The translations under genes were made by a program, and so were the position numbers. From positions 1 to 58,215 of the IMG/VR virus record IMGVR_UViG_3300009417_000001: a stretch of 58,215 bases of DNA. The stretch is one strand, 5' to 3'. Positions 124 to 58,215 of the stretch are shown here, piece by piece (position 1 is the first letter of the stretch; the number at the start of each line of letters is the position of its first letter). A model generated the notes under the pieces. The model saw nothing but the letters and a program-made list of their open reading frames with translations, was not told the origin of the DNA and searched no databases. The DNA is from a virus.

Positions 124-3100
124 AGAGACTGAGTTGAACGAGCAGCTTGGTGTTTCCCCACCCCCGACACAACTCGACCTGGGGTTAGAGAATACTGAGA
201 CCCCAACCCCGGCTGAAGACCCGGTCGCAGATGAGGACCCGGTCGCAGATGAGGACCCGGTCGCAGATGAGGCCCCGGTCGCAGATGAGGCCCCAACTAC
301 TCCGGCCACCACGCAACCTGAGTTACCTGTTGGCCCGGCCACCACGCAACCTGAGTTACCTGTCGCCGAGCAGCCTGAGTCATCAACTACTCCGGCTACC
401 GAGCAACCTGAGTCATCAACTACTCCGGCTACCGAGCAACCTGAGTTACCTACCCAAACCGAGGAACAAAATGACCCCGCACAACCTAGCCGAGACACAG
501 AAGTACCGGGCGCAGGATCGAACCCAACTACAGAACCGCTGGTCCCGACAGACAGAACAACAGGAGATGGAGAAACATCAAATCCTCCAACAACAACTGG
601 AAACCCTACCGACGTTGCCGGAGAACAAAAGGATGTAACTGAGACCACACAAGCGACTAACGAAAATAGTCAAGAAACTCAACCCGCAGCGGCAGTTCCA
701 AGCCCCACACAGGTGGTAGAAGATCAAAAACCGAAAGTACCTACGGTAAACATCCCGGCTAAAGACCTGACCCCATCTACAGTCCGGGCCGCAGTTAAAG
801 CGGGAGCCCACTTGAATGAAGACGGTTCTTTGACCTTGCGTACCAGCATTAAAGACCGTGTGGACGTGGCAATCGCCCAGGAGAAAAAGCGGGAGGCCGA
901 CAAAGAGAAGATGGCCGACAAACCCGTGACTGTCCCCAAGGACAAGAAGGAGAAGCCGAAGACCGTCCATGACATCCGTCGAGAGAAACTCGAAGCCCTC
1001 CCTTCCCGAAGATCTGCGGAAGACGCGGAAGAGATTTTGGGCGAAGAAATAGTGGCTGCGGTTCGGCTAGGGGTGAACTTTGGTATGCCCATGCGTGTTC
1101 TGGATCAGCAGATCGAAGATGCAGCCAACATAGTCCGGGCGTTTGAGCGTGGCGACCCAGCTTTCACTTTAGCCTCAAGTCCTGGGTACGGTAAAACGTT
1201 TGTTGCCGCCGCAGCCATAAAAGCATTGCAGAACCGAGGTTTCAAAAACTTTACCTACGTCACCAAAAACAAAGGTCTTATCAACCAGTTTAAAGCAGAT
1301 ACCAAAGCATTCAACTTAGGGCCTGTCGATGTGATAAGTTATGCTGGGATGCGAGGTAAAGGGGACTACCTTCCCCCCAAAGACACAGTTTTGTTTTTCG
1401 ATGAGTTTCATGAGCAAGTGGCCAAATTCCCTGCTGGGGGGTCTCGTAACGAGGTGAACAAGGGGCATGTCCTGGGTAAACCCATGCGGCCCAGCGTGAG
1501 AAGACGGGGTTACACCATTTCCAGTCTACAGGCATCTATATGGATGCAACATGTTAAAATGAATGTCTTGGTTTCGGCGACCCCTTTTAGTGATTGGAAG
1601 GGGATGAAAATCCTAGAACATGCTGGGATGTTTGATGAGAATTTCGAGGGGGACCTCAAGACGTTTGGTCAAACGTTTGGGGCCATCGGTAACTCGGATG
1701 GATCACTCACCTCGCGACCAGGTGTCCTGGGGGGCCAAGATCGGGTACGCGCCCGACAGCACCTGTACAACCAAGGACTTTTCGATCACCGTCAAATTGA
1801 GTTGCCTCCCGGCATGGTAGATGCCGAAACCGTGAGTGTTCCCGGAGACCCAGAAATAATTAAAATCAGTAACGCCATCGATCAAGCCTACAATGAAATG
1901 CAGGAAGGGGGTCAGGTAGATCGTAACCTCGCACAGAATATCAAGAACGTTAAGAAGTCGGTGTTGGAATCTATCAAACTCAAAGACGCTATCCTACTGG
2001 CCAAGGACCGGGTAGAGAACCACGGCAAGAGCGTGGTCATCTTTACCGACCGGAAAACATCCACCCGTTGGGACTTAAAGAAACTTGAGTCCGAGTACGC
2101 CCGAGCCAAAGAAAGAAAACGGTTGGGGCAGTTTGTAGATTTCCAGGGGTGGATTGGGGTGGATGGTAAGCCTTACCCACTACCTGTGTCCGAGAATATC
2201 GTTAAGTTTCGACTGCGCGTTGGGGAGATTGTCGGGACCGACCTGATCGTCACCCCCGGGATCGCAGACATCCAGGACTACATCCGAGACACCCTGCAAG
2301 CACCTTTTGGCATGTACATGGGTAGTGGAGAACAGACGAACACTTTGGATGATTTTCGATCAGGTCGGGTTAAATATTTGTTCGCCACTCTTAGTAAAGG
2401 AAGTACTGGCCTAAGCCTTCACGATAAGGTGGGTAACCGACCTACGGAGGCCATTGTTGTGGCACTACCGTGGACCGCAGCCACCGTGCGCCAGGTCGCC
2501 GGACGCACAGCAAGGTTTGGTATGAAGTCACCGACGAAATACCACTGGTTGGTCACCGACGCTAGCCCGTTTGAAAGTGAGATGGCTTCTCGAATGGAGG
2601 AGATGCTTCTGTCGATGGGTGCCTTGGTTAATGGCCGAGTCATGAAAAATGCATCTGTTACAGGCGAGTTCGACATGGAATCCGAGTTAGAAGATCGACT
2701 CGTCAATGGTATGAGTCCCTCGGAACTGCAAGTTGGGGAGCAAACCGCAGGCCCCGTGTCGGCCAACCCGACAAAACTGGGTCAGCCGAAAGCCCAGTCC
2801 AAACCCAAAGCGAAGCCCAAAGCGAAGCCCAAAGCGAAGCCCAAAGCGAAGCCCAAAGCGAAGCCCAAAGCGAAACCCAAAGCGAAACCGGAATCCAAGT
2901 CGGATCTGGACGCACGTATGGATGTCGAAAGAGCCGCCGTGGCCATCGAGCTCCAGGCTGAGGAATTGATGGGTGACCTCCGCACCGTTTTGGGTGAGCG
3001 GGTTCGATTAGTCAAACGTTTGAAAGAGTCTGGGTTTGCCCCTGGGACGGAACAGTTTGCCCGTGCCGCAGCGGCCAACGCCCGAGAAACTCAGTTCGAC

Positions 3101-6100
3101 CAGCAGATGGTCAACTTCCGCAAAGCGTTTGATCAAATGAACATGCCCGTTGAAAGTATGGTTGACGAGGCCTTGCGCCAGATTCAATCCTCTCGCGACG
3201 TGTGGTCTGAATTAGGGGACCTGACTCAACCACTCCCCACCGAAGTAACCGAGGCCGCATCGAAACCTAAAGCCAAGGCGACCCGGAGACCTCGTGCCAA
3301 GCACCTGGGTGAAGTATTGCCTACAGATGTTAAGTCTTTAAAAGCCCACCCTTGGGTCGAGTCCGTTCGCAAGAAGGGGGATAGTGTCATAGTCTCCTTG
3401 AAAGACGGGTACCGAGGTAACTTTAATCGGGTTGTAGAGATGGATCTGGATAACATCTCGGAGGAGTTCCGAGCAATCTCCCGCACTGCCGGGGGCGACG
3501 CATATACCAGAGGCGACGGGGAGTTCGGGGTATTTGCATCTTCAGAAGATGCGGTCCAGGCCGTGTTCGACTTGGACCTTCCCTTGGACACTCAAGCGTT
3601 TAAGATCGAGGAAGTCTTTGACGTTGTTGTGCTTCATATCCGTCCAACACGATTGCCGAAAAACCACCGCCTGATCAAAGAGGGGTTCTTCAACACTGTC
3701 CGCGAAGACAGTTTCTCCCTGGACGACACGCCCACACCTACCCACTTCGGTGAAAACGGCATCATTCGCCTCTACGGACCTCCGAACGGGGCGACCCGAC
3801 GTAGTATTCGAGAATCCCTAGAAAGTGCCGGGTATGGAGGAATAACCATGCGCTCGGGATCATCAGTGAACACTTTAGAGGGACCTGCGGAGGATTTCGA
3901 GAAAATGATGACTGCTGTGGATAGTTGGTACCGATCCCAAGACTCTTTGTCTGTGTCGGATACGGGGATTCCTTTGGGCGGTCACACTCACCCGGACCCC
4001 GCTTCAGAGGCCAAGATCCAAGAGTACGCGGAGAAACTCCGTCGGGAACCACTCACCGAAAAAGAAGACAAAGACTTCAAAAAACTGACGCAGGAGAAAC
4101 GGTCAGCGACCTTCTTTTCCCAGGGTTTGAATTGGCAGTCCACCCCAGGTCTCCAAAAGACCACACTGCTCACCAACCAGGAAAACACTTCCCCTCTCTT
4201 CTCGGGCCTAAATTTCGAAGAGTACCAGACGCGGGATGTTCAGTCCATGTGGGATGTCGGGACCGCCTTCGTCACCGGGATGACGAGCGACAGTGACTTC
4301 TGGGATGCTTACGAAAGTATCAACTCCGACGACTTTGTGCTGCGCCAGTCGGCCCTGGCCAACTTCATCCATGTCCTAAACATGATGGCTGTCAAAGGCC
4401 AAGGTGACCTTGGATCACTACGGGCGAACTCCCGTCGGGCCGAAGCACTGCTCCGTCGGTTGCAGACCACCACAGGTCAGGCGAATAATGTCGCCAAGCT
4501 GTTCCAGTACTACATCCGACAGACTCCACAAGCGTTGCAGGCCACTGCGCTCACGAACCTCTACAACGCATATGTAGGTGAGACGGGGTTGAACGAGAAC
4601 GACGTCAAGCAGACCATGCAGAAGGCCGACGACATGATCCAAGATGCTGCCGACGACGTCATCAAAGGCCAACAACCAGATATGAGGACGGTCGAAGAGA
4701 TTCGCCGGGACGCCCAAAACGATATGCGCCGAGTCGCATCCCTGGACATTATCCAAGGTTTGAAAACTATGAAGGGTAAGTTGGCTGACCTGCTCAAGAA
4801 CAACAAAGACAAATTGTCGGTTGAAGATAACGAAATCGAGGCCCTTGTGTTTGAGATGCTTGGGGAGCCTCAGAAGTGGTTGGACGCGATGGAACAGCGG
4901 CCAGAGATCTATGAGGAATTCACAGAAGACCAAATGGAATTCCTACGAGACCGCCTGACCAACTTCATGCAGGAAACCCAGGCGTTGAACGAGACGATGG
5001 AAACCCCCAAGGCCGAGGCACCAATGAGCCAAGGAGCCAAGGACATTCAGGACGCAGCACAAAAAGCGCACAAACGTAGGAAGCGTAAGAAGCGTAAGAA
5101 AAAGGAAGCTGCTGCTGAAACTCCGGCCACTGCCGAAACTCCTCCACCTGCTGATGCACCTGCCGCTGCTGAAACTCCTGCGGTTGAAGAGCAGTTAGAG
5201 GAAGATCCGAAAGCGTTACTCAAGAAGCGGGTCCGGGCGTGGCTGAAACGTCGTAACCGCACCAAAGATCCAGAGACCGTGGACGAGATCGATGTGGATG
5301 AGCTCACTTTCCAAGAGTGGAAAAAACGTTTGGATAAAATCGCCTACAGGTCGCTCAGGTTTCAGAGCGGCGGGGTAGCCAAGCTAGCCAACGACATGGG
5401 GGAATACCTCGGGGTTAACGAAGCCGACGCAAAAAAGTTGGCTAAACTCTACTACGGAGAGTTCCGCGAGAAGTTAAAGAACCGCAAGGCAGCCATCTTG
5501 TACGCCCGAGAGAACCAACGCCTGAAGCCCAAGATGCTCAGTGTACGTAAAACCTACCTCCAGAAAATCGTGGACCTGGCTCAACTCGGAGCCCTGGAAG
5601 ACCAGGACAACCGATATGAAGAGGCCATGTTGGAGGCGATCGATGAGCATGTCAAACGGAAGAACCCCCTCACTGGGGAGAAATTCCGAGACATGGCTGA
5701 CACGCTCGTAGAGCATTCAGAACTGGTTGCCCAGGCTGCCGATCTCGCCATCGAAGCCGGAGTCGCTCTGGACGTAGACCTCCCCTACCTCGTGCAAGTG
5801 AACGCCATGAATGTGGCTATGCTCAGTGCTTTGGGAGTTAAACTAAGTTCCGCTGCCAGAGTCGTTTTTTACACGAACATGCTGTCTGGGATGTCTACCA
5901 TTCTTGTTAATAATCCAGTTGGCACGGCGTTCAACTTACTTGCATCCACAATCAACGAGATATTTATCGCTCTGTCAGGTAACGATACCGCAGGTACCAA
6001 GGCCAAAGACATTCCCGCAATCCTCCGGTCGGTTATTGGGGGTGTTGCTTCAGGGAAAGACTACGCGACTGTGCTCAAAAACACTGGGGCCGACCCTGTC

Positions 6101-7887: not shown

Positions 7888-7899
7888 TCAAACGTTTGA
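7888..7899. repeat. TCAAACGTTTGA palindrome, 3 nt after the giant-gene stop
   Basis: Exact 12-mer read in the sequence. Confidence 0.95.
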
Positions 7900-8813: not shown

Positions 8814-10736
8814 TTATGTCTTCATGTAATGGTCTAATAATAATCCCTCCGCAGCAATCGGCAGCCCGGTCGCCCAGGAAGGGGTTTTGATAACTTCCTT
8901 GTGGATAGCATCATAGTACTTCTGAGCCCCTTCGAGGGGGACTTCGCAAATTAACTCGTCGTGGACCGTCCACATCAACAGGACGCCTGGGATTTTGTCC
9001 ACCCGAAACAGGGCGTCCCGCAGTACATCCCGCGCAATGGCCTGGATGACGTTCTCGCACATCAGCCCGCCGTAGAGCTTGTGGATTGAATCTCCTGGCT
9101 TTTTGCGGCGTCCTCCGTGGACTGAGTACCCCGTGTACTCCCACCCGTACTCACCCATCTTACGAGTGATGTTGATGTAGTGTAGTACCCGTCCCGAAGG
9201 GAGCACAAGCTCCAACGTCTTGTCGGGAGAGTCGTAGGCTTCTATCACTCTTTGGTGTAGTGTTTTCCAGAATCCTGTGATCAGGGGGTTCTTACGTCGG
9301 AAGTCGGCCACCACTTCGCGAGCCTTGTGCTCGGGGATAAAGATACCCATCTTCTCAAGCATCCCTTGGTACTTCGCCCAACCCACCTGGTACCCGAGAG
9401 ACAGAACCATCTGCTTGGTGATTTTATATTCATCTGGCGGGACTGTTTCTGCATACGGGGCTGGGTCTGTGTACCCGAGGTAAAGGCGAGCAAACGCCTC
9501 GTACGGGGATTGACCCAAGTGCATCAGTTCCAACATCTTTGTGTTACCTGTCATCCAGGCAAGTACGCGGGGTTCGATCTGGGAGAAGTCAATCGCAGCC
9601 AACTTCTTACCAGGAGGTGCGGCAAACACCTTCCGAATCTCATACCCCCAACGAGGTTTCGAAGTTAAGTTCTCCATGTTGAACCCCCCGACCGAAGTCC
9701 ACCTCCCTGTGTGAGCACCGTGGTAAAACTTAGAGTATGGGAATCGACCGTCTTCTCCGATGCGATTCATGACTTTGGCGAACTTATTCCAGTGGGTGTG
9801 TATCTGAGAAAACTCACTTTTAGCAATGGCCCAAGGAGCCCGTTCTCCATAATCCTCTTGCCATTTGTGCCACCGGGGGTCTTCTTTATTTTGGCTGGGT
9901 GGGATAGGTATCCCGGCCTCCTCGCAAGCGTGGGTGAATGCGTACTTACTTGCCACCCCGGCAATGACGGGTTGGCCTTTACGCGCCATCCGACCACTGG
10001 GGCAAGGTTGGCCCACCCAAGGTATCAAAGCCAAACGTTTTGCTTTTTCGGCCTCCAGGTTTTCAAGGGCCTCGGCGACATATTCCTGGTTGACCCAGAC
10101 GCCTTTCCAACCGAGACGCCGGGTCATTTGGCTAAGACGGCGTTCCGCATCATCCCAATGGTCACATAAGTCGAACCAGAACCGCAGGCAGGAAATTGTA
10201 TCTTGACGACAATACACCACGTATTCCAACCACTCATCATCGGTAAAGTCTGCCCGACGTTTACCCCTCGCTTTGCGGCGGGGGTCCTTATCCATCTCGA
10301 TACCGAACCGATGTTTGAGACAGCCTGCCAGGCTCCTTGGATACCCAGCAGATGCGGCGAGGTCGGCAGAGCATTGGAAGGTAATGTCGGCTTCCCAACC
10401 GCCCAAGTGACTGTTACGTAATATATATTCGTCGAACTCGGCGTTGTGGCAGACTACGGTCAGGCCTTCGAGCCGATCGAACAGGGCTTTGAGGTCGTCT
10501 TCATCGGGGCATTCAAGGCTGATGTCGAGGAAGCCGTATTTGGTCTGTCCGTAGACGTGTACCAGGAGTATTTCAAAATCGGGGTGGGCTTCGTAATTCA
10601 CAACTCCCAGTTCTTTGACGGAGCATTCTTTATCCCAGTAGGATTCGACGTCCGCAGATACTGTCCCGACCTGCCATATAGGCATTGTTTGGGACCCGGG
10701 ACCAGATGACATCTTCAGTGTGGTTGGGCTTGGCAT
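8814..10736 (-). CDS. family A DNA polymerase with 3'-5' exonuclease domain
   Basis: Exonuclease motifs VVCHNAEFDEYIL and YCRQDT. PolA motif A AAIDFSQIEPRVLAW, motif B KQMVLSLGYQVG, motif C WTVHDELICEV. Confidence 0.9.
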   Translation of the reverse strand: MPSPTTLKMSSGPGSQTMPIWQVGTVSADVESYWDKECSVKELGVVNYEAHPDFEILLVHVYGQTKYGFLDISLECPDEDDLKALFDRLEGLTVVCHNAEFDEYILRNSHLGGWEADITFQCSADLAASAGYPRSLAGCLKHRFGIEMDKDPRRKARGKRRADFTDDEWLEYVVYCRQDTISCLRFWFDLCDHWDDAERRLSQMTRRLGWKGVWVNQEYVAEALENLEAEKAKRLALIPWVGQPCPSGRMARKGQPVIAGVASKYAFTHACEEAGIPIPPSQNKEDPRWHKWQEDYGERAPWAIAKSEFSQIHTHWNKFAKVMNRIGEDGRFPYSKFYHGAHTGRWTSVGGFNMENLTSKPRWGYEIRKVFAAPPGKKLAAIDFSQIEPRVLAWMTGNTKMLELMHLGQSPYEAFARLYLGYTDPAPYAETVPPDEYKITKQMVLSLGYQVGWAKYQGMLEKMGIFIPEHKAREVVADFRRKNPLITGFWKTLHQRVIEAYDSPDKTLELVLPSGRVLHYINITRKMGEYGWEYTGYSVHGGRRKKPGDSIHKLYGGLMCENVIQAIARDVLRDALFRVDKIPGVLLMWTVHDELICEVPLEGAQKYYDAIHKEVIKTPSWATGLPIAAEGLLLDHYMKT

Positions 10737-12502: not shown

Positions 12503-13660
12503 TTAAATTTTTTCTTTGTTGCGTCGGATGTACGCCGAAGATTCATTCTGTCGGGTAATGTCGGAAGCCAGGTCGTTGAAGTTTTCCAGGGCCTGCTTAC
12601 GTGCATCTTTATCCGTAATTACTCCTTCGATGTAATTCTCCAACTTGGACACGTTTACGGTGGCCAACCCCTCTAGACGGATCATGTCGAGGTGGTGGTC
12701 TTCACCCGTTGCTTCTTCGATGGCTCGCTCCATGTGCGAGAAGGCCATACTCAGGTCGGTTATGGTGCGTGTCCCCTTGCGGTGGGCTAGTACGTGACCC
12801 GGCAGTGGGAGGTTCTCCTTGACTACGATTCGGTGCGTCAGTGCCTTAACCTTGTCCAGAGATTTTGCGACGAAGGTTAGGGTCTCTCGGAGCCGGGCAA
12901 TCTCCCGCAGATCTCCATTTTCCAAACGTTTGATATCTAGGTCTTCTTGGGCGGTGAAACCCATCACTTTCGAAATGTCGTTCACCTTCTCGACGTGAGC
13001 CGGGCAAATAGGTTGCCGACCACACCAATCGCAGGCAGTGCCGGGATTTAAGCGGCTTAGATAATCCTCACACCGCACGGAGATCCGAGCTAGATCCGTC
13101 ATGATGGTTTCCATGTCGGCCAGACTCATGTCGTGGACCTGGTCGATTTCGAGTCGGGGGTACACTACGTGAAGTTGAACCGGCAATTGGTAAAGGAGCC
13201 ACGAGGCAGCCCCGTACGCTAGTTGCTGTTTGTTTTTTCCAGGTTCGTCCTGCATGGATCGACCAAATTTCCAGTCAACAATGATGACTTGGTCCTTGGT
13301 GCGGATGAGCACGTCGATGAAGCCCTTTTTTGGGTTTCCTTTTTCGTCCTTACAAAAGGGGATTGCGATCGCCCGTTCAAATTCTACTTTGGCTCCGGGG
13401 TACTGCCCCAACAGTCGGTCCCTGTAATCCATTGCGTATTGGACTAGCTTCTCGTGATCCTTTGAGAGCCCTGCGAGCGTATCGTTCTCGACACATTCGT
13501 GGAGCATGGTGCCTTCTTCGGCGGCAGGTTTATCGACCCATCGGGGTTCAGAAATATATCCCGGGCAGGTGGCCATCGACGACAGTCGGGAGGGGCTCAT
13601 GGTGGGCCGTTTCAGTAAGTCAGAGACGGACTTCGAACGGAATTTGGTTGGTTTTGGCAC
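12503..13660 (-). CDS. PD-(D/E)XK nuclease, Cas4/RecB-like with a Cys cluster
   Basis: Core GFIDVLIRTKDQVIIVDWKFGR. An N-terminal Cys (MATCPGY) plus C-terminal CDWCGRQPICPAH gives a four-Cys pattern. The GTG at 13660 overlaps the upstream gene by 41 nt, so the ATG at 13600 is an equally plausible start. Confidence 0.75.
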   Translation of the reverse strand: MPKPTKFRSKSVSDLLKRPTMSPSRLSSMATCPGYISEPRWVDKPAAEEGTMLHECVENDTLAGLSKDHEKLVQYAMDYRDRLLGQYPGAKVEFERAIAIPFCKDEKGNPKKGFIDVLIRTKDQVIIVDWKFGRSMQDEPGKNKQQLAYGAASWLLYQLPVQLHVVYPRLEIDQVHDMSLADMETIMTDLARISVRCEDYLSRLNPGTACDWCGRQPICPAHVEKVNDISKVMGFTAQEDLDIKRLENGDLREIARLRETLTFVAKSLDKVKALTHRIVVKENLPLPGHVLAHRKGTRTITDLSMAFSHMERAIEEATGEDHHLDMIRLEGLATVNVSKLENYIEGVITDKDARKQALENFNDLASDITRQNESSAYIRRNKEKI

Positions 13661-14790: not shown

Positions 14791-16099
14791 GATCTTCTCC
14801 GTACTGTAGGTCGCCGTCGTTAAGGCAATCTAGGTTTTTTAGCTTACTGGTTACGTTGTTATAAACTTCTTCTTCGAGGGTCCCGGCCAGGTAGCAAATG
14901 TATTGAAGTGACTTCGTCGCCGAGTCGGCCCGGTGGACCCGCCCCAAAACCTGCTTCAACTCTGTGGAACTGTACATGGGGGATATCAAAGATACTCGGG
15001 GGTACTTCCCGACCCGGTCTTGCAGGTTGACTGCGATGCCCCCGGCCTGGACCATGCAGATACAGACTCGGGCCTCGTCTCGGGCGAACCGGGTTAAAGC
15101 GTCCCCGCGTTGCACGTCGGTTTGGTCGCCGTGTATCGTGCAAATAGGGATCTTGGCGACCAAAAGCTTTTCGACCAGCCACTGAAGGCTGGCGCGGAAG
15201 TTGACGAACATGACAACACTGTGTCCCCCAGTCACATACTCTTGAGTCCAAGCCAACATTGGCTTGATCCGAGCTAATTCAAGAACCTGTCTTTGGTACC
15301 CGTAGACTTCCAAATCTCCCGCCCCCGAAGAAACAGATATAGACAACTTCTTTCGGAGTAGTTTGTTTTCTTCTAGGACTTTATTTAAATCCCGCACCCC
15401 ATTAGTGTGCAGTAGTTTGCCCTCGATCACCGTCTCGGGGAAACCCGCAATGTCTTCCTTTCGGAGCCTGGACCCCCACGTTGGGAAAATCTGCTGGTGC
15501 AGTTGGTTCATGTGGTGGCGTTGATCTTCGATGTCAGACGTCCACTCGAAAGCAAATCGGTTGAAGTACGATACGTGGCACCCGTAGGTGATGGCAAATC
15601 GGTCCCAGTGTTTCCGCGCAAACAACCCCAGGAAGGGGCCAAGTGACCTCAGTTTGAGTGGATTATCGGCTAGTGTGGCTGAGAGTAGAATGGCGGCAAA
15701 GTCCTGCTGCAGCGCGTGGCGAACCAGGTGGGATGTCAGGGACTTGTATTGTGCCGTCTTGTGCACTTCGTCGAATATGAGCACTGCGTGATCCGGTATA
15801 TCCCATTTGAAGGCCTTCTTACCCCGCTTCTTTACCCAGGTTGTCTTGCCCCCACGCATCTTTGCGTAGGACTCGATAAACACGGGCTCCAACCCCATCT
15901 TCTCGCAGTGATCTGCCCAACCATGTTTGGCCACTGCGGGGCATACGATGGCCGGGGAATACCCGAGGCGGCGAACCAATTCCAAAGAACAAAACGTTTT
16001 GCCGACCCCGGTCGAACTTGCGTCCAACACAATGCCTTTGTCGAGAAACACTTCCATCATGTGTTGGATGTGGGGTTCTTGATAGTCAAAAGGCTTCAC
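14783..16099 (-). CDS. SF2 (SNF2/DEAD-like) helicase
   Basis: Motif I ASSTGVGKTFCS, II LIFDEVHKT, III LLSATL, VI QVLGRVHRADS. GTG start. Confidence 0.85.
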   Translation of the reverse strand: MKPFDYQEPHIQHMMEVFLDKGIVLDASSTGVGKTFCSLELVRRLGYSPAIVCPAVAKHGWADHCEKMGLEPVFIESYAKMRGGKTTWVKKRGKKAFKWDIPDHAVLIFDEVHKTAQYKSLTSHLVRHALQQDFAAILLSATLADNPLKLRSLGPFLGLFARKHWDRFAITYGCHVSYFNRFAFEWTSDIEDQRHHMNQLHQQIFPTWGSRLRKEDIAGFPETVIEGKLLHTNGVRDLNKVLEENKLLRKKLSISVSSGAGDLEVYGYQRQVLELARIKPMLAWTQEYVTGGHSVVMFVNFRASLQWLVEKLLVAKIPICTIHGDQTDVQRGDALTRFARDEARVCICMVQAGGIAVNLQDRVGKYPRVSLISPMYSSTELKQVLGRVHRADSATKSLQYICYLAGTLEEEVYNNVTSKLKNLDCLNDGDLQYGEDHE

Positions 16100-19306: not shown

Positions 19307-19671
19307 AAGTCCCCCGCCCTGTCACACTCCCCGCAACTGGCTGGGATTATCCGGGCGATCCCTTCGACAACTCTGGTTATCTCCTCTCGGAAAAACCACT
19401 TCCCGAAATCTGCACAGAACTCCTCTATCAAGTCCTGGAATTCTTCTCGGACAAAAATTTCATATTTGAATTCCTCTACCCGATCGTTTCCTAGCTTAAC
19501 TTTAAAAGTGACAAAACGTTTGTCAGATTCCAATTCTTGGAAAACCCGGCCTTGGACGGTTAATCCAGGCAGTCCATGAGGGGGGAAAATTGTCGCTCTC
19601 TTCTGAGCCTCTTTCAGGCATGCTTCATAGTATTTCGCCAACTGATTTGCGTAGTCTTCGGGATGACTCAT
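19303..19671 (-). CDS. hypothetical protein
   Basis: 122-aa ORF with overlapping start and stop. Confidence 0.65.
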   Translation of the reverse strand: MSHPEDYANQLAKYYEACLKEAQKRATIFPPHGLPGLTVQGRVFQELESDKRFVTFKVKLGNDRVEEFKYEIFVREEFQDLIEEFCADFGKWFFREEITRVVEGIARIIPASCGECDRAGDL

Positions 19672-43662: not shown

Positions 43663-44076
43663 ATGAGTTATTTTACAGCGACATCCGACCTGCCTATGGC
43701 CCAACCTTTGGACGCCAAGGTCCAGACGATCAAGACTTTGAAAGAAGTCGCGACGCTCGACCTGACAAAGAGCTACGTCATCGATGTTAACTTCCCGGAG
43801 CCTGACGAAGCTATGAGTGATGCCACAATGGACAAGCTCGATTCGAAGTTACGCCTTCGCAACAAGATTCACGCGGCGGTTAACGCGCGGTTCGAGAAAG
43901 AGATGGTTCCCGAGATCGACCCCGTCCAAGAGGCAATCAACGCCGGAATGTCTGACGAACAGATTAAAGAAAAGTTCCTCAAAAAAGACATTATAAAGAC
44001 GGCCAAGGCAAACAAGATATCTGCCCGAGGCAACGAACTAACTATCATCCAACGGATTAGAAAATCAACAAAGTAA
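43663..44076 (+). CDS. hypothetical protein
   Basis: 137-aa ORF. Confidence 0.65.
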   Translation: MSYFTATSDLPMAQPLDAKVQTIKTLKEVATLDLTKSYVIDVNFPEPDEAMSDATMDKLDSKLRLRNKIHAAVNARFEKEMVPEIDPVQEAINAGMSDEQIKEKFLKKDIIKTAKANKISARGNELTIIQRIRKSTK

Positions 44077-44085
44077 AACGTTTTA
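44074..44085. repeat. TAAAACGTTTTA palindrome overlapping a stop codon, 24 nt before the next ATG
   Basis: Read in the sequence. Confidence 0.9.
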
Positions 44086-47684: not shown

Positions 47685-48917
47685 ATGGGAAAATGTAACG
47701 ATTGTAACCAGTCGCACGAAGACCCAGTTTGCCCAAACTGCGAACCGATGCGGACCAACAGCCCCAGCTTCCTGGGGCCGTCGGCCCCGGGGTGCTCAAC
47801 ATGCGGTCAAAACCAATGTGGTTGTGACGGAGAAGTGTCCCGTCCGATCATGCCTCCCGAGGTTAATTACCTGGGGGAGACACACGTACGTTACTGCCCG
47901 GAAGAAGATTTAAAAACTAAGTCTTTTGGCCAAGTTCCTTTTGGCGACACCCGCATACTTCGAGTTCGAGATGCGAGTTGTTACCGCGTGGGGGCCTGCG
48001 TTCGTTTGATCGACGATCGAGGAAATCAAAACGTTTTAAAAATCACTCAAGTAGATCACAGGAATTGTGAGATACATGTAACCGCGTACCGCAACGATTT
48101 CAGTTCTGAGGACGTTTCTCTGTCGGGGTGCATCTCCATCGCTTATCTCCCTCTCTGCCCATTAGAGATCGAAGAAGAGACCCTGGATGACTGCATCCAC
48201 CTGACAGTCAAGACTTCGGAAAGCTTTATCATGCCTGCGGCCCCAGGAGACCCTGCCGACCCTGGACAACCTGTCAAGGTCTGCTTCGAGGAGTGCTTCC
48301 ACATCTGCCCGGGAACAACCATGTACATCCCCGACGCCGGATTCATGGATGTAGCTTGCGACCCAAGTGACTCTTCATTCACATCTCCAGCAAACTGCTA
48401 TTGGTTCACCAACAGCGGAAACCCGAACAACCGAGATAAGGGGCTAACGGTACCTTCTGGAAAATGCGCGTACCCGTCTGTGTCTCAGCCAACGGAAATT
48501 ACCACTGGGGCTGGCCTCGTGACTGAGGACGACGGGACCATCTCCCTGGACTTCTCTTCCGCAGTTTGCGTAGCCGGAGATGGGGGGATCATCAAAGACG
48601 ACGATGGCTGCCTCGCACTCGACCCATATTATTGCCCTCCTAAGAAGGTCCTTGAAGATGTACCGGTTGATAGCTGGGTACAGCCATCCGCTGACGGGAA
48701 CCCTGTAGGGGGCAACCTAACATTCTGTGCCACTGATGACGCCGCATCTGTTGGGGGTACGATCACCATCGAAGTGGCCGACGACGCCTCGGGAACCAAT
48801 TCCGTGGAGCATGTATCTCCCAATGAGGCCCTTTGCTTCACTGTAAATGTCCCTTGCGGTAGTTACGTCAAAGTGTCATTGTTCTCTCTCGAAGCCCCTA
48901 TAACGGTGACGGGATGA
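47685..48917 (+). CDS. tail fibre-like protein with a Cys-rich N-terminus (paralog of 46533..47684)
   Basis: MGKCNDCNQSHEDPVCPNCEP...CSTCGQNQCGCDG. Both proteins share a Y-x-VG-x-C block and a PxCP block. Confidence 0.6.
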   Translation: MGKCNDCNQSHEDPVCPNCEPMRTNSPSFLGPSAPGCSTCGQNQCGCDGEVSRPIMPPEVNYLGETHVRYCPEEDLKTKSFGQVPFGDTRILRVRDASCYRVGACVRLIDDRGNQNVLKITQVDHRNCEIHVTAYRNDFSSEDVSLSGCISIAYLPLCPLEIEEETLDDCIHLTVKTSESFIMPAAPGDPADPGQPVKVCFEECFHICPGTTMYIPDAGFMDVACDPSDSSFTSPANCYWFTNSGNPNNRDKGLTVPSGKCAYPSVSQPTEITTGAGLVTEDDGTISLDFSSAVCVAGDGGIIKDDDGCLALDPYYCPPKKVLEDVPVDSWVQPSADGNPVGGNLTFCATDDAASVGGTITIEVADDASGTNSVEHVSPNEALCFTVNVPCGSYVKVSLFSLEAPITVTG

Positions 48918-50705: not shown

Positions 50706-51182
50706 ATGGCGAATAAAGACGAAAAAGGGATACTCACCCTACCGGTCAAAGGTAGGGTCGGCAACCGCTTGGGTTCCTGTTGGGGTACGCCCAAAGAGTT
50801 TTTCAAACGTTTGATTGAGGCTCTGTACATTCAGATCGATTCGCGCGAGTTTGGTAAGGCCTACCCCGGACACGCCCCTCCCGAGGACCTATCAAGCATT
50901 TGGTTTCAGACCGACAAAGACGGCCGCCCGATTTGTGCGAAGTCTTACTACAATGGGAAGTGGGTACCTCTGTTCCCTTGCTTCCCCGCGCAAATGAAAT
51001 TCCCGTTCTGCGGAGATCCCGACGACATCCAAGAGCCTTGGTGCGTTGCTGACGGCCGGGGCGGTACTGACGATACCCGTGACCAGTGGGTCATGGCTGA
51101 CGGGAGCGATGTACCTGGGGCCGGAACCAACATCGACGATGACGTAGCTTTGGGCTACTTACAATACTGCGGTTACTCCTGA
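50706..51182 (+). CDS. virion-module hypothetical protein
   Basis: 158-aa ORF. Confidence 0.6.
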   Translation: MANKDEKGILTLPVKGRVGNRLGSCWGTPKEFFKRLIEALYIQIDSREFGKAYPGHAPPEDLSSIWFQTDKDGRPICAKSYYNGKWVPLFPCFPAQMKFPFCGDPDDIQEPWCVADGRGGTDDTRDQWVMADGSDVPGAGTNIDDDVALGYLQYCGYS

Positions 51183-52183
51183 TGCTGACACTAGGCCAAG
51201 CTAAACAAGACCTGGCGATCCAGGATGCGATGGGTTCGGGCGAACCGAAATCCCCACAGGCACACCTACGGTATAACCGCTCCATCGACCGAGCAGTTCG
51301 ACAACTGTTGCGGAAAGGTGACTGGCACACTGCGTTGCAAGAGTACTGCTTTAACACCTGCGAGGGATGCCTCCACCTACCCCCCGAGATCAAACGGGTG
51401 GTTTCGATCGATTTAAATTGCAACCTGGCCCGAGTATTCGACAGACACTTTCGGTACCTCGATCAAGGTCCTGGCATGTGTTCTACGACCATGTGCGGAC
51501 CCGAGGGAATTCACGACGCCGGGTTGACCCAAGTACTTCAGCAGCCGAAGAGCCCCACAGGGCTGGCCGTAATCTTAGACAGTTGTGATAGTGGTGTCGA
51601 GGTGTCCATCCAGGCCCGAGACCAACATGGGAAAACCATCACGACTTTCGGGCAGTGCGGCGAAGGATGCCAGCAGTCCATTAAGATCAAACCCACCTTT
51701 GGAAAGATTCAAACGTTTGAATTCCCGATCGTGGCCGAGATCTGCCAAGTAACCAAGGGAGCCACCTGCGGGGCGGTATACCTCTACGAATACGATTGTC
51801 ACACCCGCAAGGTAGGAAATCTAATCACGACGTTATATCCCGAAGACACTTTCCCACAGTACCGGAAATACAATCTGGGAGACATGTTTAACCCCGCCCC
51901 TCAGGCGATCCGACTACTGGCCAAACGGAAGCACCGAGTGTTGCACGATGACACGCAGGCTCTGATGGTAGATAGCCCCGACGCCGTGGCCATGATGTTG
52001 AAGTACAACGAGGCCTTGAAAGACGAAAACCCAACAATGGCTGATTTTTATCTTAACGAGGCGTTAAACTTCATGGATGATTCTGAAATGGATTACTCTG
52101 ATGAGAGCGACGAAGTTCGTTACAATTTTGAAAGAACTGTCCGAGTTTCTGGCGAGCCTGGACTTAGAAGCGGAGGTTGGTAG
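51182..52183 (+). CDS. head-tail adaptor / tail tubular A-like protein (weak)
   Basis: The N-terminal pattern IQDAMGSGEPKSP...NRSIDRAVRQLLRKGDWHT recalls the T7 gp11 N-terminus. Confidence 0.3.
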   Translation: MLTLGQAKQDLAIQDAMGSGEPKSPQAHLRYNRSIDRAVRQLLRKGDWHTALQEYCFNTCEGCLHLPPEIKRVVSIDLNCNLARVFDRHFRYLDQGPGMCSTTMCGPEGIHDAGLTQVLQQPKSPTGLAVILDSCDSGVEVSIQARDQHGKTITTFGQCGEGCQQSIKIKPTFGKIQTFEFPIVAEICQVTKGATCGAVYLYEYDCHTRKVGNLITTLYPEDTFPQYRKYNLGDMFNPAPQAIRLLAKRKHRVLHDDTQALMVDSPDAVAMMLKYNEALKDENPTMADFYLNEALNFMDDSEMDYSDESDEVRYNFERTVRVSGEPGLRSGGW

Positions 52184-53799: not shown

Positions 53800-53800
53800 C

Positions 53801-56269
53801 ATGCCTTCTAACTTCGTTGCATCTGATTTACTCAACCGCGCTGCTGAGGACCGGGCGAACGCAGGCCGTATTGGCCCTGCCGCCGCAACTGGGTTCCTCG
53901 CTGGCCTGGACGCCAGTTACAAGATGGCCAAGTTTGACTTTGACGTTCAAACCCAGGCTAAGAAGTTCGCCTTGGCTGAACAAGAGTTACAATACACGAA
54001 GACGGAACAGGATCGCCAGTTTGCCTTAAAGTCGGCTTCTACGGAACTGGACGACCGAATCAAAAATGAAACGTTTGAATTGACCAAGGTGAACCTGGGT
54101 CTTCAGCAGGACGCCCGTAAGCTCGAACTCAGTCGTCAGGGAGCCCTCATGCGGGACACCCTGCAAAAGATCAACTTCGAGAAACAAGACGTCCAACTCC
54201 AATCCGAGTACGATTCACTAGCATCCCAACTCCCCCCAGACAAGGTGATGCCTTTCACGCAGACGTACGTGCAAGACTTGTTCAAGGAAGCCAAGGCGAC
54301 CGAGAACCCCGATGAGCGAAATGTACTCATGCAACGAGCCAGTCGGTTCCAGCAAAAGTGGGAAGGGGAAGTCAAACAGCAGTTGGACGAACTCCGTACG
54401 GCTCGACAAGAGGCCATTTTACAGGGCGACCACACCGCCGCTGAGAACTTTAGAAAACAAATTCAAGCCATCGGCGGTGACCTAGCAGTTTACCAAGTCA
54501 ACAAAGGCACGTACGCACTTCAAGAGCAGGTGGCTAAGATGCAGTTGGCTGTGGCGAAGCTGGAAGAATTCAAGGATAACAAACAAGGTAAAGATGACGA
54601 CGCAGACATCCGAGTCGGCCTGGCCGGACTTGCGGCTGACGAAGACCCCTACGAATTTTTAGACGGTTTGACTGAGAAAGCGACCAACAACCCTAACCTA
54701 ACCCAGGGTGAAAGACGTAGGGCTGTACAAGCCATCACGTCGAATCGGGAGCGGCTAAAGGCGGCCGAGCTAGGGGATGTGGTGGAGGCCACAGCCTTCG
54801 AAGAGGCCAAAAACATTTATACGCAGAACCAAAATAATCAGAATGCCTTGGTAGCCGGTACCGAACTTCTTCAACAAATCTCTACATCTACAAGTAGTTT
54901 TTTGCAATCTCACCAGAACGCCGCCCCACACTTGGTCGGACCTCTCGTCCAAATGGATCAAGTGGCTCTGGTAACCGACTACATCGCCAACGCCACCGAG
55001 GCTGCCGGAGGCACTTTAGACCCGGTCACTTTCAAAGCCTTGGGCGAGGTTCGATCTAAGATCCTATCCGAAGGTTTCTCGGCGGCCAAGGCTGCCGTGC
55101 AAACTGGGACCCAAGAGTTTGATGAGGCCTTCTCACTGTTTAAAAACTCCCCTGCCTTGGCCGCCTTAACTCCCGAGGAGCAGAAGGTTCAGATCACCAA
55201 CAAATACCAAGAGTTGTACGGAGTGCATTTGAAAACCCCTGTCGAAGTCCTAGGAGTGTACACAGGTAAGGTTAATGGAGATTCTCAAAGAACTCTGGAC
55301 CGGGCGAAAGGGACCCCTGAGAACTTCGACGCCTTTGAGTTTGCTTCTGGGGCTTCTGAAGCTACCCCCGCTGCCGATGCGTTGGGGGACGAAGCTAATT
55401 TCCAAAATCCTGAGTTTACCTTAGAGAATGCCCTCGCCTTTGACGCTGACCCAGATGAGGTGGCATCAATTCAACAGTCCGTTCTGGAAGATTCTCAAGC
55501 GGAGGTATCGAGAATTGCGTCTAAGAATGTAGACATCGACCTGTACCAAAGTTCAGTCAAAGGAACCCGGTTAACGGAGTCTTCACTTAAAACGGGCAAC
55601 TACGATGCAGGAAGGATTAAAAAATATAGTTCTATATTACGCGGTTTGGAGAAAACTGAGCAAGTCAAAGGATCTGAGGAACTCCAGAAAGACCTCACTG
55701 GACTACTAAGTGTGATGCAGACGTTGCAGGATGCCCGTAAAAAGGATAATGGTTCGGACCCGGCCAACGACGTTCGCGCCCTAACCCTTAATGTGAATGC
55801 TCGTTTAGATAAGTTGGGTGGTAAACTAGGTACCGAATTCAAAAAATTCAGTACCGGGGTGAAAACACCCCCGCCCGACGTAAGGTCGGTTCCAGACGTC
55901 CTTTCTAGGCTCTCCCCCAAAGAATTAGACATTGACTTGTACCAAAGTTCGGTCAAAGGAACTCGGTTAACGGAGTCGTCTCTTAAATCAGGTAATTATG
56001 ACGCTGGGCGAATTAAAAAATATAGTTCTATATTACGCGGTTTGGAGAAGACTGACCAAGTCAAGAAATCTGAAGCTCTTCAGAAAGACCTCACCGGATT
56101 ACTGAGTGTGATGGACACGTTGCACAAGGCCCGTAAGGATGACAACACCTCGTCAGGCAAACCTGGCAGTAGTGTCCGATCACTAGTACTCAACGTGAAC
56201 GATCGATTAGATAAATTGGGCGGTAAATTAGGCACGGAGTTGCAAAAAATTAGTTTACCTGGTGGGTAA
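53801..56269 (+). CDS. internal virion / ejection protein (coiled-coil rich)
   Basis: The ATG at 53801 lies 1 nt after the upstream stop. 822 aa. It has a C-terminal tandem duplication. Confidence 0.5.
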   Translation: MPSNFVASDLLNRAAEDRANAGRIGPAAATGFLAGLDASYKMAKFDFDVQTQAKKFALAEQELQYTKTEQDRQFALKSASTELDDRIKNETFELTKVNLGLQQDARKLELSRQGALMRDTLQKINFEKQDVQLQSEYDSLASQLPPDKVMPFTQTYVQDLFKEAKATENPDERNVLMQRASRFQQKWEGEVKQQLDELRTARQEAILQGDHTAAENFRKQIQAIGGDLAVYQVNKGTYALQEQVAKMQLAVAKLEEFKDNKQGKDDDADIRVGLAGLAADEDPYEFLDGLTEKATNNPNLTQGERRRAVQAITSNRERLKAAELGDVVEATAFEEAKNIYTQNQNNQNALVAGTELLQQISTSTSSFLQSHQNAAPHLVGPLVQMDQVALVTDYIANATEAAGGTLDPVTFKALGEVRSKILSEGFSAAKAAVQTGTQEFDEAFSLFKNSPALAALTPEEQKVQITNKYQELYGVHLKTPVEVLGVYTGKVNGDSQRTLDRAKGTPENFDAFEFASGASEATPAADALGDEANFQNPEFTLENALAFDADPDEVASIQQSVLEDSQAEVSRIASKNVDIDLYQSSVKGTRLTESSLKTGNYDAGRIKKYSSILRGLEKTEQVKGSEELQKDLTGLLSVMQTLQDARKKDNGSDPANDVRALTLNVNARLDKLGGKLGTEFKKFSTGVKTPPPDVRSVPDVLSRLSPKELDIDLYQSSVKGTRLTESSLKSGNYDAGRIKKYSSILRGLEKTDQVKKSEALQKDLTGLLSVMDTLHKARKDDNTSSGKPGSSVRSLVLNVNDRLDKLGGKLGTELQKISLPGG
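55532..56254 (+). repeat. tandem duplication of a roughly 110-aa module (period 396 to 402 nt) inside 53801..56269
   Basis: DIDLYQSSVKGTRLTESSLK...RLDKLGGKLGTE occurs twice. An exact 37-nt match links 55616..55652 and 56012..56048. Confidence 0.9.
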
Positions 56270-56287: not shown

Positions 56288-58215
56288 ATGCCTGTTAACG
56301 GACTTTACCCACTACCTGAAATCCTAGCCAGCACCGAGTACCAGTCAATGGAGCCTGATAACCAGGTTGCATTACTGCGTGACCAACGTCGTATAGCCAC
56401 AGAGATGGCTCCAGACCAAACGGATCAATTGGTCTCCCTGTACGATTCAGCGATCTTGGACGTAGCCCTAAAGCCACCAACGATCCCAACCTCGACAAAC
56501 ATGTCGAATGCATTCCAGAAGTCTTTTGACGCCCTCTGGTCTAATGCATATTACGGCCTGATCGACACAGACGTAGAAGCAGCTAAGATGCACCGCACGC
56601 TGTTAGAGCGTCGTCAACCCACGCGGGAGGGGTTTTCAGAAGATGTGGGTGAAGTGGCGGGTATGGTGCTTCCCTCGATCGCAGCCCTATTCATTCCAGG
56701 CGGCCAAGGAACCTCGGCGGCCGGGATTCTTAATCTAGCTCGTTACGCCACGGCAGCACTACCCCTCGCCACCAGTTCCGGGGGTGGAGCCTTAATTGAT
56801 GCTCGCGAGTACCAAGATTTAATCGGAGGTCCCGAACTCTCCAAAACTCGACAGACAGCCATCTTCGCAGGTAACTTCCTGACTGAGGCAGCCACAGAGG
56901 CCCTCGGGTTCAAAGTTATCGACGGTATCTTGGGCAAGGCGGGTCAGAAACTAGGCGGCAAGGCCTTTGCTAAAATGGGTACCGAGGCTGCCGAGGCGAT
57001 GGGCGACGCTCTCCTCCGAGGCGATACAGCAGGTATGGGGCAGGCATCCAAGAAATTCTTTGCTACGGCCCTCCCGGCCGCATTCGGTGTAGCCGCGTCT
57101 GAGGGTACCGAGGAAGTGGTCGCCCAGATAGCTCAGAACGCTTTGAAGAACTCCCTGTACTTGCAGGACCAAGATGAAGTGAGTCTGGGTGACGGCCTAG
57201 GAGATGCGTTTTATAAGGGGGCTTTGGGTGGCCTGATGATCACCCCTTTCGGCCTGGCGGTTGGTAATTCAAGCGCAGGTAAATATCGAGAAAAATTGGA
57301 GGCCAACCTCCGCGAACGCCATTCACTAATTCAACAGGTATCAGAAACTGTAGCTCCTTCGACCTTTGCCCCCGAGGCACTGAGTCACCCAAGTTACCAG
57401 ACGTTAGCAGGCATCTTGGCATTCCATGAAGTCAATGTCATCCCAGTCCGAGGCCTCAGTGGGGCTCGAGGTGTAGTTCCCGGTGAAAGCTCGAATGACG
57501 TTTTGGTAGACGTTGATCGGTTGATCAAACCTGCGGAAGGATTCTCCGCGATGCTCCAATATACCTTGGGTCACGAGATGAACCACATCGTGGAAAACAA
57601 GGTGCCGGGTTACCGAGAGGCTTTGGAAGGGTTGGTCAAGTCAGACCCCGAATATTCAAAACGTTTGAATGACTTACGGGCGAACAGCAACCTTGACAAC
57701 GCCACCGAAGAGCAGGCCGTGTCGGAGCTCATCGCCGACTATGCAGCCCCCAAATTCTTTACCCCGGAGTTTCAGCAAGCTTTGTTCGATTCTCTGCCCG
57801 AAGGAGAGGCTAAAAAGTCCTACGTTCAAGCAGTGTCTTCGAACTCAGATTCGATCACCCGTGCGACGGCCGCCCTTGAAACCTTTTTGGAACAACCTAC
57901 AGGCACTCCTGCCCTAGTCACTCGGGCGCGGGAAGCAGTCGAGGGGATGCCTGACGTGAAGGCCATCGACACCTTGCTAACCCAGGGGTTGGCGGCATCT
58001 ATCTTGGACGGCGAGATCATCAATCAAACAGTCCCCGGAACTGCGGCCACAGGCGACCAGGCGACCGAGGAACAAGCTGAACAGGCGACCGAGGAAAAAC
58101 CCGAGCAGACGACTGAGGAGAAGGTGGCCGAGCGCGTAGATGCAGGTGACCTAGAAGGCGCAGTAGAAATTTTAGATCAGGAGGCCGGAGGTGCGGCCGA
58201 GGCCCTAGGGCTGAC
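56288..58215 (+). CDS. giant virion-module polyvalent protein, N-terminal part (continues at 2..7885 across the junction)
   Basis: ATG at 56288 lies 18 nt after the stop of the upstream gene. I translated the frame by hand and found no stop before the window end, which is why it is absent from the ORF track. It is in phase with ORF 32..7885 through the 123-nt overlap. It has Gly/Ala-rich hydrophobic segments followed by LGHEMNHIVE (HExxH at 57572..57586). Confidence 0.85.
   Translation, partial: MPVNGLYPLPEILASTEYQSMEPDNQVALLRDQRRIATEMAPDQTDQLVSLYDSAILDVALKPPTIPTSTNMSNAFQKSFDALWSNAYYGLIDTDVEAAKMHRTLLERRQPTREGFSEDVGEVAGMVLPSIAALFIPGGQGTSAAGILNLARYATAALPLATSSGGGALIDAREYQDLIGGPELSKTRQTAIFAGNFLTEAATEALGFKVIDGILGKAGQKLGGKAFAKMGTEAAEAMGDALLRGDTAGMGQASKKFFATALPAAFGVAASEGTEEVVAQIAQNALKNSLYLQDQDEVSLGDGLGDAFYKGALGGLMITPFGLAVGNSSAGKYREKLEANLRERHSLIQQVSETVAPSTFAPEALSHPSYQTLAGILAFHEVNVIPVRGLSGARGVVPGESSNDVLVDVDRLIKPAEGFSAMLQYTLGHEMNHIVENKVPGYREALEGLVKSDPEYSKRLNDLRANSNLDNATEEQAVSELIADYAAPKFFTPEFQQALFDSLPEGEAKKSYVQAVSSNSDSITRATAALETFLEQPTGTPALVTRAREAVEGMPDVKAIDTLLTQGLAASILDGEIINQTVPGTAATGDQATEEQAEQATEEKPEQTTEEKVAERVDAGDLEGAVEILDQEAGGAAEALGL
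58093..58215. repeat. terminal overlap, second copy of 1..123
   Basis: Identical to 1..123. Confidence 0.95.

Follow-up and report, generated by a model that had tools for sequence, protein, structure and literature searches.

A dispersed palindrome maintained by selection in an uncultivated phage genome, and an orphan ParB-like protein as its candidate binder

We analyzed the window, that is, the whole 58,215-nucleotide stretch of IMG/VR virus record IMGVR_UViG_3300009417_000001, and found that this phage genome carries 27 exact copies of the palindrome AAACGTTT, evenly spread along the DNA. The over-representation of the word is real and robust, and its maintenance by selection at the DNA level is well supported. 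We tentatively propose that the copies form a binding or loading array for a dimeric DNA-binding protein, with an orphan ParB-like protein of the phage as the lead candidate; we regard this reading as quite possible, though short of probable. The window, first described in a preliminary account based on the sequence alone (the preliminary description), proved to be a circular assembly whose end repeats its start exactly over 123 bp, giving a unique length of 58,092 bp. The genome is complete and comes from an uncultivated phage.

An exact search of the window recovered 27 copies of AAACGTTT and eight copies of the 12-mer TCAAACGTTTGA, in agreement at every position with the manual scan of the preliminary description, and the longer palindromes that it had noted (14 bp at 21241 and 16 bp at 51707) were both seen in the flanks. 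In dinucleotide-preserving shuffles, AAACGTTT occurred 1.43 ± 1.09 times (maximum 5) and TCAAACGTTTGA did not occur. A third-order Markov model predicted 1.47 copies of the octamer (Poisson P = 7e-25), and the expectation across null models ranged from 0.7 to 1.5 copies. The enrichment therefore stands after exact counting with Markov and shuffle controls (27 versus ~1.4). AAACGTTT was the top-ranked 8-mer of the window, and its excess far surpassed that of other palindromes, the runner-up among palindromic 8-mers having 6 copies. The best 8-mers unrelated to the motif had P values of only ~1e-4 to 5e-6, which are not significant because 65,536 tests yield such values by chance. A second, strand-polar motif (ACCCGGTC and others) was also not significant after multiple testing. 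Chance or base composition as the origin of the array was ruled out by the shuffles, the Markov model, the 8-mer ranking and the codon shuffling described below. An assembly artefact was ruled out as well, because the same sequence is present in the ENA, JGI and Logan assemblies; the genomes in these three independent datasets are near-identical (at least 99.99% identity) and too alike to yield a conservation signal.

Several observations indicated that the DNA word, and not a peptide, is the target of selection, as had been proposed. The intragenic copies occur in three reading frames and in genes of either orientation. When codons were shuffled synonymously within genes, 7.7 ± 1.2 copies remained compared with the 27 observed, and the survivors were mostly the non-coding copies, which were left unshuffled. 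The expected codon bias was also seen: 12 of the 17 K-R-[L/F] tripeptides were spelled AAACGTTT, where codon usage predicts ~5%, and 6 of the 9 [KQE]-T-F tripeptides carried the word. The three reading frames, the two coding strands and the exact spelling at 12 of 17 K-R-[L/F] tripeptides rule out a peptide-driven repeat. Moreover, K-R-[L/F] was 2.4-fold more frequent than expected from the amino-acid composition; therefore, selection on the word has been strong enough to distort protein sequences. In the family-A DNA polymerase (PolA), the motif-encoded KRL falls in a linker that shows no conservation among 20 homologs, meaning that copies settled where protein constraint is weak. The codon shuffle, the counts of variant words and the variable PolA linker all agree on this point.

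The anatomy of the site was unusually exact. The central 8 bp were invariant and 26 of the 27 copies fitted MAAACGTTTK, the copy at 54069 being the only one with G at position -1. Position -2/+2 favored T/A, the flanks were A/T-rich, and the symmetrized half-site read W-W-T-[C/A]-A-A-A-C, with ~10 bits per half and ~20 bits per site; positions 6-8 from the center were weakly conserved (0.3-0.55 bits). One-mismatch variants of the octamer remained at background, with the exception of the outermost position (CAACGTTT/AAACGTTG, 7 observed versus 2.3 expected). AACGTT outside the octamer was not enriched (12 observed versus 15-17 expected), and the deamination neighbors AAATGTTT/AAACATTT were not depleted (4 observed versus 2.4 expected). 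The site is a symmetric element of 12-16 bp, and judging from its sequence, this exact and symmetric profile would be that of a site for a dimeric helix-turn-helix (HTH) protein.

The copies were distributed more regularly than random placement would give. Their mean spacing was 2,152 bp, with a coefficient of variation of 0.59 compared with 0.97 at random (P = 0.0017), which bears out the roughly even 2-kb spread noted before, and 91% of genome positions have a copy within 1.5 kb, compared with 76% at random (P = 0.002). Gene boundaries were enriched, also as described: non-coding DNA makes up 6.0% of the genome in the corrected gene map and is touched by 6 of the 27 copies (P = 0.006), and two more copies (16598 and 32091) lie at a gene junction or alternative start. 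The remaining 21 copies are counted as intragenic. Among them is the copy at 57659, which had been taken as intergenic and actually lies inside a 3,229-amino-acid (aa) gene that wraps around the circular junction. The sites, given without strand, are as follows.

1194..1201: AAACGTTT copy (TAAAACGTTTGT) in the giant gene, frame 1
1671..1678: AAACGTTT copy (TCAAACGTTTGG) in the giant gene, frame 1
3012..3023: full 12-mer TCAAACGTTTGA in the giant gene, frame 0 (K-R-L)
5324..5331: AAACGTTT copy (AAAAACGTTTGG) in the giant gene, frame 0
7888..7899: full 12-mer in non-coding DNA, where the giant gene (ending at 7885) and the minus-strand replication block (8126) converge
10033..10040: AAACGTTT copy in the DNA polymerase A gene, K-R-L in the linker that varies among homologs
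12924..12931: AAACGTTT copy in the DUF2800 / PD-(D/E)XK exonuclease gene, frame 0
15992..15999: AAACGTTT copy in the SNF2-type helicase gene, 100 nt in, frame 1
16598..16605: AAACGTTT copy at the junction of the HTH-protein genes 16596-17159 and 16096-16599, coding strand AAACGTTTGAAA-ATG
18514..18525: full 12-mer in gene 18041-18706, frame 0
19514..19521: AAACGTTT copy in gene 19303-19671, frame 0
21241..21254: 14-bp palindrome GTCAAACGTTTGAC in the primase (DUF5906) gene, frame 0
22709..22716: AAACGTTT copy in gene 22150-22734, 18 nt in
23847..23854: AAACGTTT copy in non-coding DNA, 24 nt upstream of the DHH-phosphoesterase start and followed by the leader GAAAACTAAGAAAGAAGAAAC
25357..25364: AAACGTTT copy in non-coding DNA, 21 nt upstream of the ThyX start and followed by the shared 21-nt leader
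27567..27574: AAACGTTT copy over the stop codon of the ParB-like gene (coding strand TAA-AACGTTT)
30936..30947: full 12-mer in non-coding DNA, adjoining a bidirectional intrinsic terminator at 30953-30974
32089..32100: full 12-mer in A-rich surroundings, with an in-frame ATG of the 760-aa gene (32102) 3 nt downstream
34019..34026: AAACGTTT copy in gene 31913-34195, frame 0
37009..37016: AAACGTTT copy in gene 35503-37911, frame 0
37636..37643: AAACGTTT copy in gene 35503-37911, frame 0
44076..44083: AAACGTTT copy over the stop of gene 43663-44076, with gene 44109-45824 starting 25 nt downstream
48029..48036: AAACGTTT copy in gene 47685-48917, frame 2
50803..50814: full 12-mer in gene 50706-51182, frame 0
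51707..51722: 16-bp palindrome ATTCAAACGTTTGAAT in gene 51182-52183, the same as the LacI-type operator of Acidobacteriaceae
54069..54076: AAACGTTT copy in gene 53759-56269, frame 1
57659..57666: AAACGTTT copy in the giant gene (56288..junction..7885), in its 5′ portion, frame 0

Two of the boundary copies share the context AAACGTTTGAAA(A)ATG. On the minus strand at 23826-23846 and 25336-25356, the motif is immediately followed by a 21-nt A-rich leader, GAAAAC[T/C]AA[G/A]AAAGAAGAAAC, which leads up to the start codons of the DHH phosphoesterase and ThyX genes and has no Shine-Dalgarno sequence. The terminator at 30953-30974 is a strong, bidirectional intrinsic one (CCCGGTGGCCGAAAGCACCGGG) with T-runs on both strands. 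A promoter role for the word was rejected: most copies are intragenic, and sigma-70-like promoter sites were no commoner in the genome than in shuffled sequence.

The trait was not shared by the relatives that we surveyed, which comprised 115 PolA-related loci of at least 8 kb and four extra close relatives. Only one of them, L004 (ENA ERZ6864471 contig c_000002453566, 1-21851; PolA 36% identical), has an iterated palindrome, and its word is a different one. The architecture of L004 matches that of the phage, with a replication module converging on a giant gene. GCTAGC occurs there in 46 copies in 21.8 kb, whereas ~6 are expected and ~11 after synonymous-codon shuffling; two-thirds of all CTAG occurrences lie within GCTAGC, and TGCTAGCA is present in 15 copies. 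L017, considered as a second such relative, was rejected because its repeat is a coding tandem repeat. The search for the same word in relatives, which the preliminary description had put forward, thus found it iterated in none of those surveyed, and a scan of viral contigs gave single matches only and no second phage with the word iterated; L292, with 5 copies in 11 kb, was not significant against a dinucleotide-aware background. The array is not a clade-wide trait; iterated palindromes are sporadic in the PolA-related group and the word itself is not conserved. The phage lineage is also very isolated. Among 50,697 phage records, megablast gave no match and tblastn gave no PolA match at E < 1e-30, the nearest PolA among 5.8 billion proteins is 36% identical, and the cultured-phage relatives gave no host assignment.

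Three phage proteins were considered as candidate binders.

27574-28539, minus strand: orphan ParB/Spo0J/Noc-like protein of 321 aa, first gene of the leftward early block, putative lead candidate
16596..17159, minus strand: 187-aa protein with a sigma-70 region-4 / MarR-like HTH, alternative candidate with weak matches only
16096..16599, minus strand: 167-aa protein with an N-terminal HTH like those of small terminase and DNA-binding proteins, alternative candidate with weak matches only

The ParB-like protein matched phrog_1033 ("ParB-like partition protein") over nearly its full length (E = 7.5e-28). Spo0J (1vz0) aligned across its N-terminal and HTH domains (E = 7e-9), and alignments were also obtained to CTP-bound ParB (7bnk and 7bnr), 6sdk and 6t1f. 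The HTH_ParB match just passed its cut-off, while Pfam ParB_N scored under its curated cut-off, as did TIGR00180 (E = 7.6e-10, 38.8 bits, cut-off 58.45); the match to the Noc model TIGR04285 was weak (E = 3e-6, 26.7 bits, cut-off 315). The protein retains the GLLxPLxV motif and the G-x-R-R-x-x-A patch in the form GHRRYYA (compare GERRYRA; G, RR and A kept), and it lacks the ParA-binding motif [LFI]G[KR]G[LFI]. A single-sequence AlphaFold model was too poor for use, with a predicted local distance difference test (pLDDT) score of 43. Palindromes of 13-16 bp are the targets of ParB-family proteins, and parS beside parB is the usual arrangement in partition systems. In the phage, the ParB-like gene borders on the divergent control region, and one motif copy extends into its stop codon. 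We consider the protein an orphan member of the ParB family, like those that are common on phages and mobile elements and whose roles are mostly unknown (PMC12704722).

From these data, we provide a putative mechanism. The 27 copies would be high-affinity sites bound by a symmetric dimer, and selection would have spread them over the whole phage chromosome until almost every base lay within ~1.5 kb of one. By analogy with KorB and Noc, the ParB-like protein (27574-28539) may load at each palindrome and then spread or slide over the adjacent DNA, so that the sliding protein would mark or coat the whole phage genome. The outcome of such coating could be global transcriptional control, organization or positioning of the DNA, or a means of telling phage DNA from host DNA. 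KorB, a member of the ParB-CTPase family, loads at OB palindromes on RK2, slides up to ~1.5 kb and acts at a distance (PMC11790492). The even coverage of the phage genome is consistent with this reach; the site spacing looks as though it were set to keep the entire chromosome within the distance that KorB can slide. In addition, the scanned phage proteins include no methyltransferase and no restriction-type or nicking nuclease that could be an alternative reader of the word.

Other observations weigh against the ParB-like protein as the reader. The preliminary description had listed it among the possible binders, and its ParB/Spo0J-type N-terminal domain and HTH proved genuine; however, no direct or comparative link ties the protein to this word. 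From sequence we infer both that a protein binds the word and that this protein is the ParB-like one. Its ENLQR-type hydrolysis motif is replaced by SINSG and, together with the TIGR00180 and ParB_N scores under the curated cut-offs, this makes clamp or CTPase activity uncertain. A homolog search of 5.8 billion proteins recovered only the protein itself, and none of the four cultured phages with distant ParB-like homologs (FoX3, ep3, PHB09 and 7-7-1) has an iterated palindrome. In L004, no ParB-like gene was found in the 22 kb examined of a 48-kb contig, and GCTAGC recurs there once every 475 bp, a density too high for a typical operator or parS. No copy of AAACGTTT falls in the 670-bp divergent control region of the phage, where a classical operator would be expected. 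Finally, bacteria use the identical word as a LacI-family operator, and the binder could therefore be a host protein.

This last identity, which was not included in the preliminary description, leads to an alternative that we consider rather unlikely, namely, that a host LacI/PurR-family repressor binds the word and the phage has gathered perfect copies of the host operator. LacI-family operators characteristically have a central CG between A/T tracts. We scanned the 16-bp palindrome against one genome per species (185,579 species) and found ATTCAAACGTTTGAAT strongly over-represented in Acidobacteriaceae (~25 of 80 among the matches listed). There it lies between a TTGACA-N17-TACATT promoter and the ribosome-binding site and start of genes for TonB-dependent receptors (~1,230 aa, CarboxypepD_reg plus a beta-barrel), and a divergently transcribed LacI-family regulator adjoins it in 6 of the 7 loci tested, so that in cells ATTCAAACGTTTGAAT is a LacI-family operator. 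The Acidobacteriaceae loci (L173-L250, e.g., L208:2849-2864), some of which carry a second CAAACGTTTG inside the promoter spacer, resemble a multi-locus regulon, so far undescribed, of Terracidiphilus, Granulicella and relatives. The phage word also shares CAAACGTTTG with the core of the E. coli PurR box and with S. pneumoniae MalR sites (PMC3159470, PMC4451989), and multicopy PurR boxes are described in one report as titrating PurR (PMC3266220). The protein scans detected no LacI-like protein encoded by the phage, as expected if the repressor is the host's. The replicating genome could then soak up the repressor and switch on the host nutrient-uptake regulon, or phage transcription could be tied to host nutrition, with intragenic repressor roadblocks that persist until the inducer appears. 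We consider it unlikely that the phage is studded with host operators, whether as a repressor sponge or as ~20 intragenic sites at which a sugar-responsive host repressor stops RNA polymerase until the nutrient signal comes; in the latter case, if true, a host protein would be running a system of the stoperator kind. Several points speak against a host repressor. The Acidobacteriaceae loci use GGGAGG sites, whereas Shine-Dalgarno use is weak in the phage (an SD-like 4-mer at 18 of 50 genes) and its leaders are A-rich, which makes an Acidobacteriaceae host doubtful. The positions that discriminate LacI paralogs are positions 6-8 from the center, exactly those weakly conserved in the phage sites, and at the 21 intragenic sites a bound repressor would hinder the phage's own expression. 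Central-CG palindromes serve many dimeric proteins, so the identity may be a coincidence, and the L004 word has no central CG and is not LacI-like.

The word could also be a phage counterpart of the cyanobacterial HIP1 (GCGATCGC), accumulated via methylation and repair or chromosome structure and possibly imposed by the host, although such an origin seems improbable to us. HIP1 is an over-represented octamer palindrome that occurs in coding and non-coding DNA and in all frames with a non-random spatial distribution, and it is maintained by selection (PMC5861425); it has been linked to cognate methyltransferases (PMC4390886), and its function is still unresolved (PMC4390886, PMC5861425). The phage word has the same signature of an 8-bp palindrome in tens-of-fold excess at about one copy per 1-2 kb, its sole above-background variant lies at the outermost position, a pattern that Elhai reported for HIP1, and the different palindrome of L004 recalls the "alternate HIPs" found in place of HIP1 in certain lineages. 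However, no scanned phage protein contains a methyltransferase domain, the preferred flanks extend the symmetry to 12-16 bp, which is longer than any methyltransferase site, and the inner hexamer AACGTT is not enriched on its own; the earlier suggestion of a modification target likewise gained no support. Repair drive of the very-short-patch (VSP)/HIP type was rejected because it predicts depleted deamination neighbors, which were not seen. A host genome saturated with the word was not seen among the matches listed from the 185,579-species scan, in which the flanks held 33 extra octamers in 874 kb and no genome had the word iterated. Since no scanned protein was recognized as a methyltransferase, restriction enzyme or nickase of the phage, the proposed nicking site was not supported either. 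As a further alternative, the word might be a "self" tag, either a packaging recognition site or a Chi-like stop for a helicase-nuclease degrading from either direction, which we consider very doubtful. The proposed enzymes are a TerS-like HTH protein, host RecBCD/AddAB, or the phage helicase with the DUF2800 nuclease. Such a tag needs even coverage, as seen here, and a palindrome reads alike from both ends; the phage does encode an SNF2-type helicase and a PD-(D/E)XK/DUF2800 exonuclease, which are fused as one protein in L004 and L007, and the 167-aa protein with a motif copy at its start has small-terminase-like HTH matches. These matches are weak, however (E ~1e-3 to 2e-4), its gene lies in the replication block and not beside a large terminase, and no relative with the same helicase-nuclease module carries the word. 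To our knowledge, all characterized Chi sites and uptake or packaging signals are asymmetric, unlike this palindrome; the word may nevertheless act as a recombination hotspot.

The genome around the array has a simple layout.

8126-28539, minus strand: early/replication block, ParB-like gene first
29.2-56.3 kb, plus strand: presumably structural block, genes largely unannotatable
56288-58092 joined to 1-7885: giant 3,229-aa gene across the circular junction

Besides the ParB-like gene, the minus-strand block holds the genes for ThyX, the DHH phosphoesterase, the DUF5906 primase, two small HTH proteins, the SNF2-type helicase, Cpn10, the DUF2800 exonuclease and the family-A DNA polymerase. The Cpn10/GroES homolog lies at 14437-14790, and the same placement was seen in relatives L005 and L411. 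The product of the giant gene combines a zincin-like HExxH motif near its N-terminus with a ResIII/Sno-type helicase. Giant genes at the equivalent position in relatives L004-L006 give weak ART-PolyVal matches, and the giant gene was therefore assigned to the "polyvalent protein" type. It contains an acidic PVADED tandem repeat around 219-270 and coding tandem repeats at 2807-2886 (12-nt period, AAAGCGAA x7) and 219-262 (18-nt period, ACCCGGTC x3). A perfect (AG)17 repeat of 34 bp (polypurine/polypyrimidine, 28787-28820), which could be slippage-prone or structure-forming, lies in the divergent control region that separates the early block from the structural one. No tRNA, integrase, ParA or CI-like repressor was detected in the phage genome, proteins being scanned with Pfam, PHROG and NCBIfam. 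Seven 6-bp palindromes (CCGCGG, GCCGGC, GGCGCC, TCCGGA, CAGCTG, CACGTG and CTTAAG) have no copy in the window, where 13-20 are expected from base composition, and CTCGAG, GGATCC and TGCGCA have one copy each, which suggests strong restriction-site avoidance.

The array can be compared with several known systems. Like ParABS systems, the phage has a ParB-like protein in which an HTH comes after an N-terminal CTPase-fold domain. However, ParABS systems have few parS sites, near parB or the origin and matching TGTTNCACGTGAAACA, whereas the phage has 27 dispersed sites that share with parS only the central ACGT and the overall 16-bp symmetry. In the absence of ParA or another Walker-type partition ATPase from these scans, of the ParA-binding motif and of the parS consensus, the phage system is not a canonical ParABS member. 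The KorB/OB system of RK2 likewise combines dispersed perfect palindromes on a replicon of ~60 kb with a ParB-family protein, although in the phage the binding would follow by analogy. RK2 has about a dozen OB sites, mostly near promoters, compared with 27 sites in the phage, 21 of them intragenic and none in the main divergent control region. The sequences also differ (TTTAGCGGCTAAA in RK2 versus TCAAACGTTTGA in the phage), and whereas RK2 has KorA and IncC/ParA partners, the scans of the phage revealed neither a ParA nor a KorA-like one. Noc, the nucleoid occlusion protein of Bacillus, is an orphan ParB paralog that works without ParA and binds dozens of scattered 14-16 bp palindromes, the Noc-binding sites (NBS). 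The phage shares the combination of an orphan ParB-family protein and many scattered palindromes, with only a weak match to the Noc model; Noc is a cellular protein that places the division site and has a membrane-targeting N-terminus. If the ParB link is true, marking or control of the whole phage genome would be the work of a ParB-type loader. The genome offers a clean case for the study of orphan ParB-fold proteins, with one candidate protein and 27 identical candidate sites.

Among the words with other readers, LacI/PurR operators are identical to the phage word over 10-16 bp, and ATTCAAACGTTTGAAT stands in operator position beside LacI-family genes; they number one or two per promoter, whereas the phage copies are mostly intragenic. 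If a host LacI-type repressor is the reader, the array would represent a novel viral strategy for sensing or rewiring host metabolism. HIP1 resembles the phage word as an octameric palindrome in tens-to-hundreds-fold excess, in all frames and non-coding DNA and beyond codon usage, but HIP1 is cellular, GC-rich and methyltransferase-linked, whereas the phage word is AT-rich, has 12-16 bp symmetry and comes with no methyltransferase. Chi and uptake-signal words are asymmetric and show orientation bias, whereas the phage word is its own reverse complement. In Cluster A mycobacteriophages, stoperators are short words repeated across the phage genome at which one phage protein blocks transcription elongation (PMC9283540, PMC6550527). 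The phage array resembles them in copy number and spread, stoperators numbering about two to three dozen over a phage genome of ~50 kb, many within or between genes. However, stoperators are asymmetric 13-mers oriented with transcription and bound by the monomeric immunity repressor of temperate phages, whereas the word studied here is perfectly palindromic, and neither a repressor nor an integrase module was detected. Whether the reader is a phage or a host protein, the array extends highly iterated palindromes, an unsolved puzzle of cyanobacteria, to a small viral genome. Overall, by analogy with these systems, the array would work most like KorB/OB or Noc/NBS, in a genome-wide layout like that of the mycobacteriophage stoperators.

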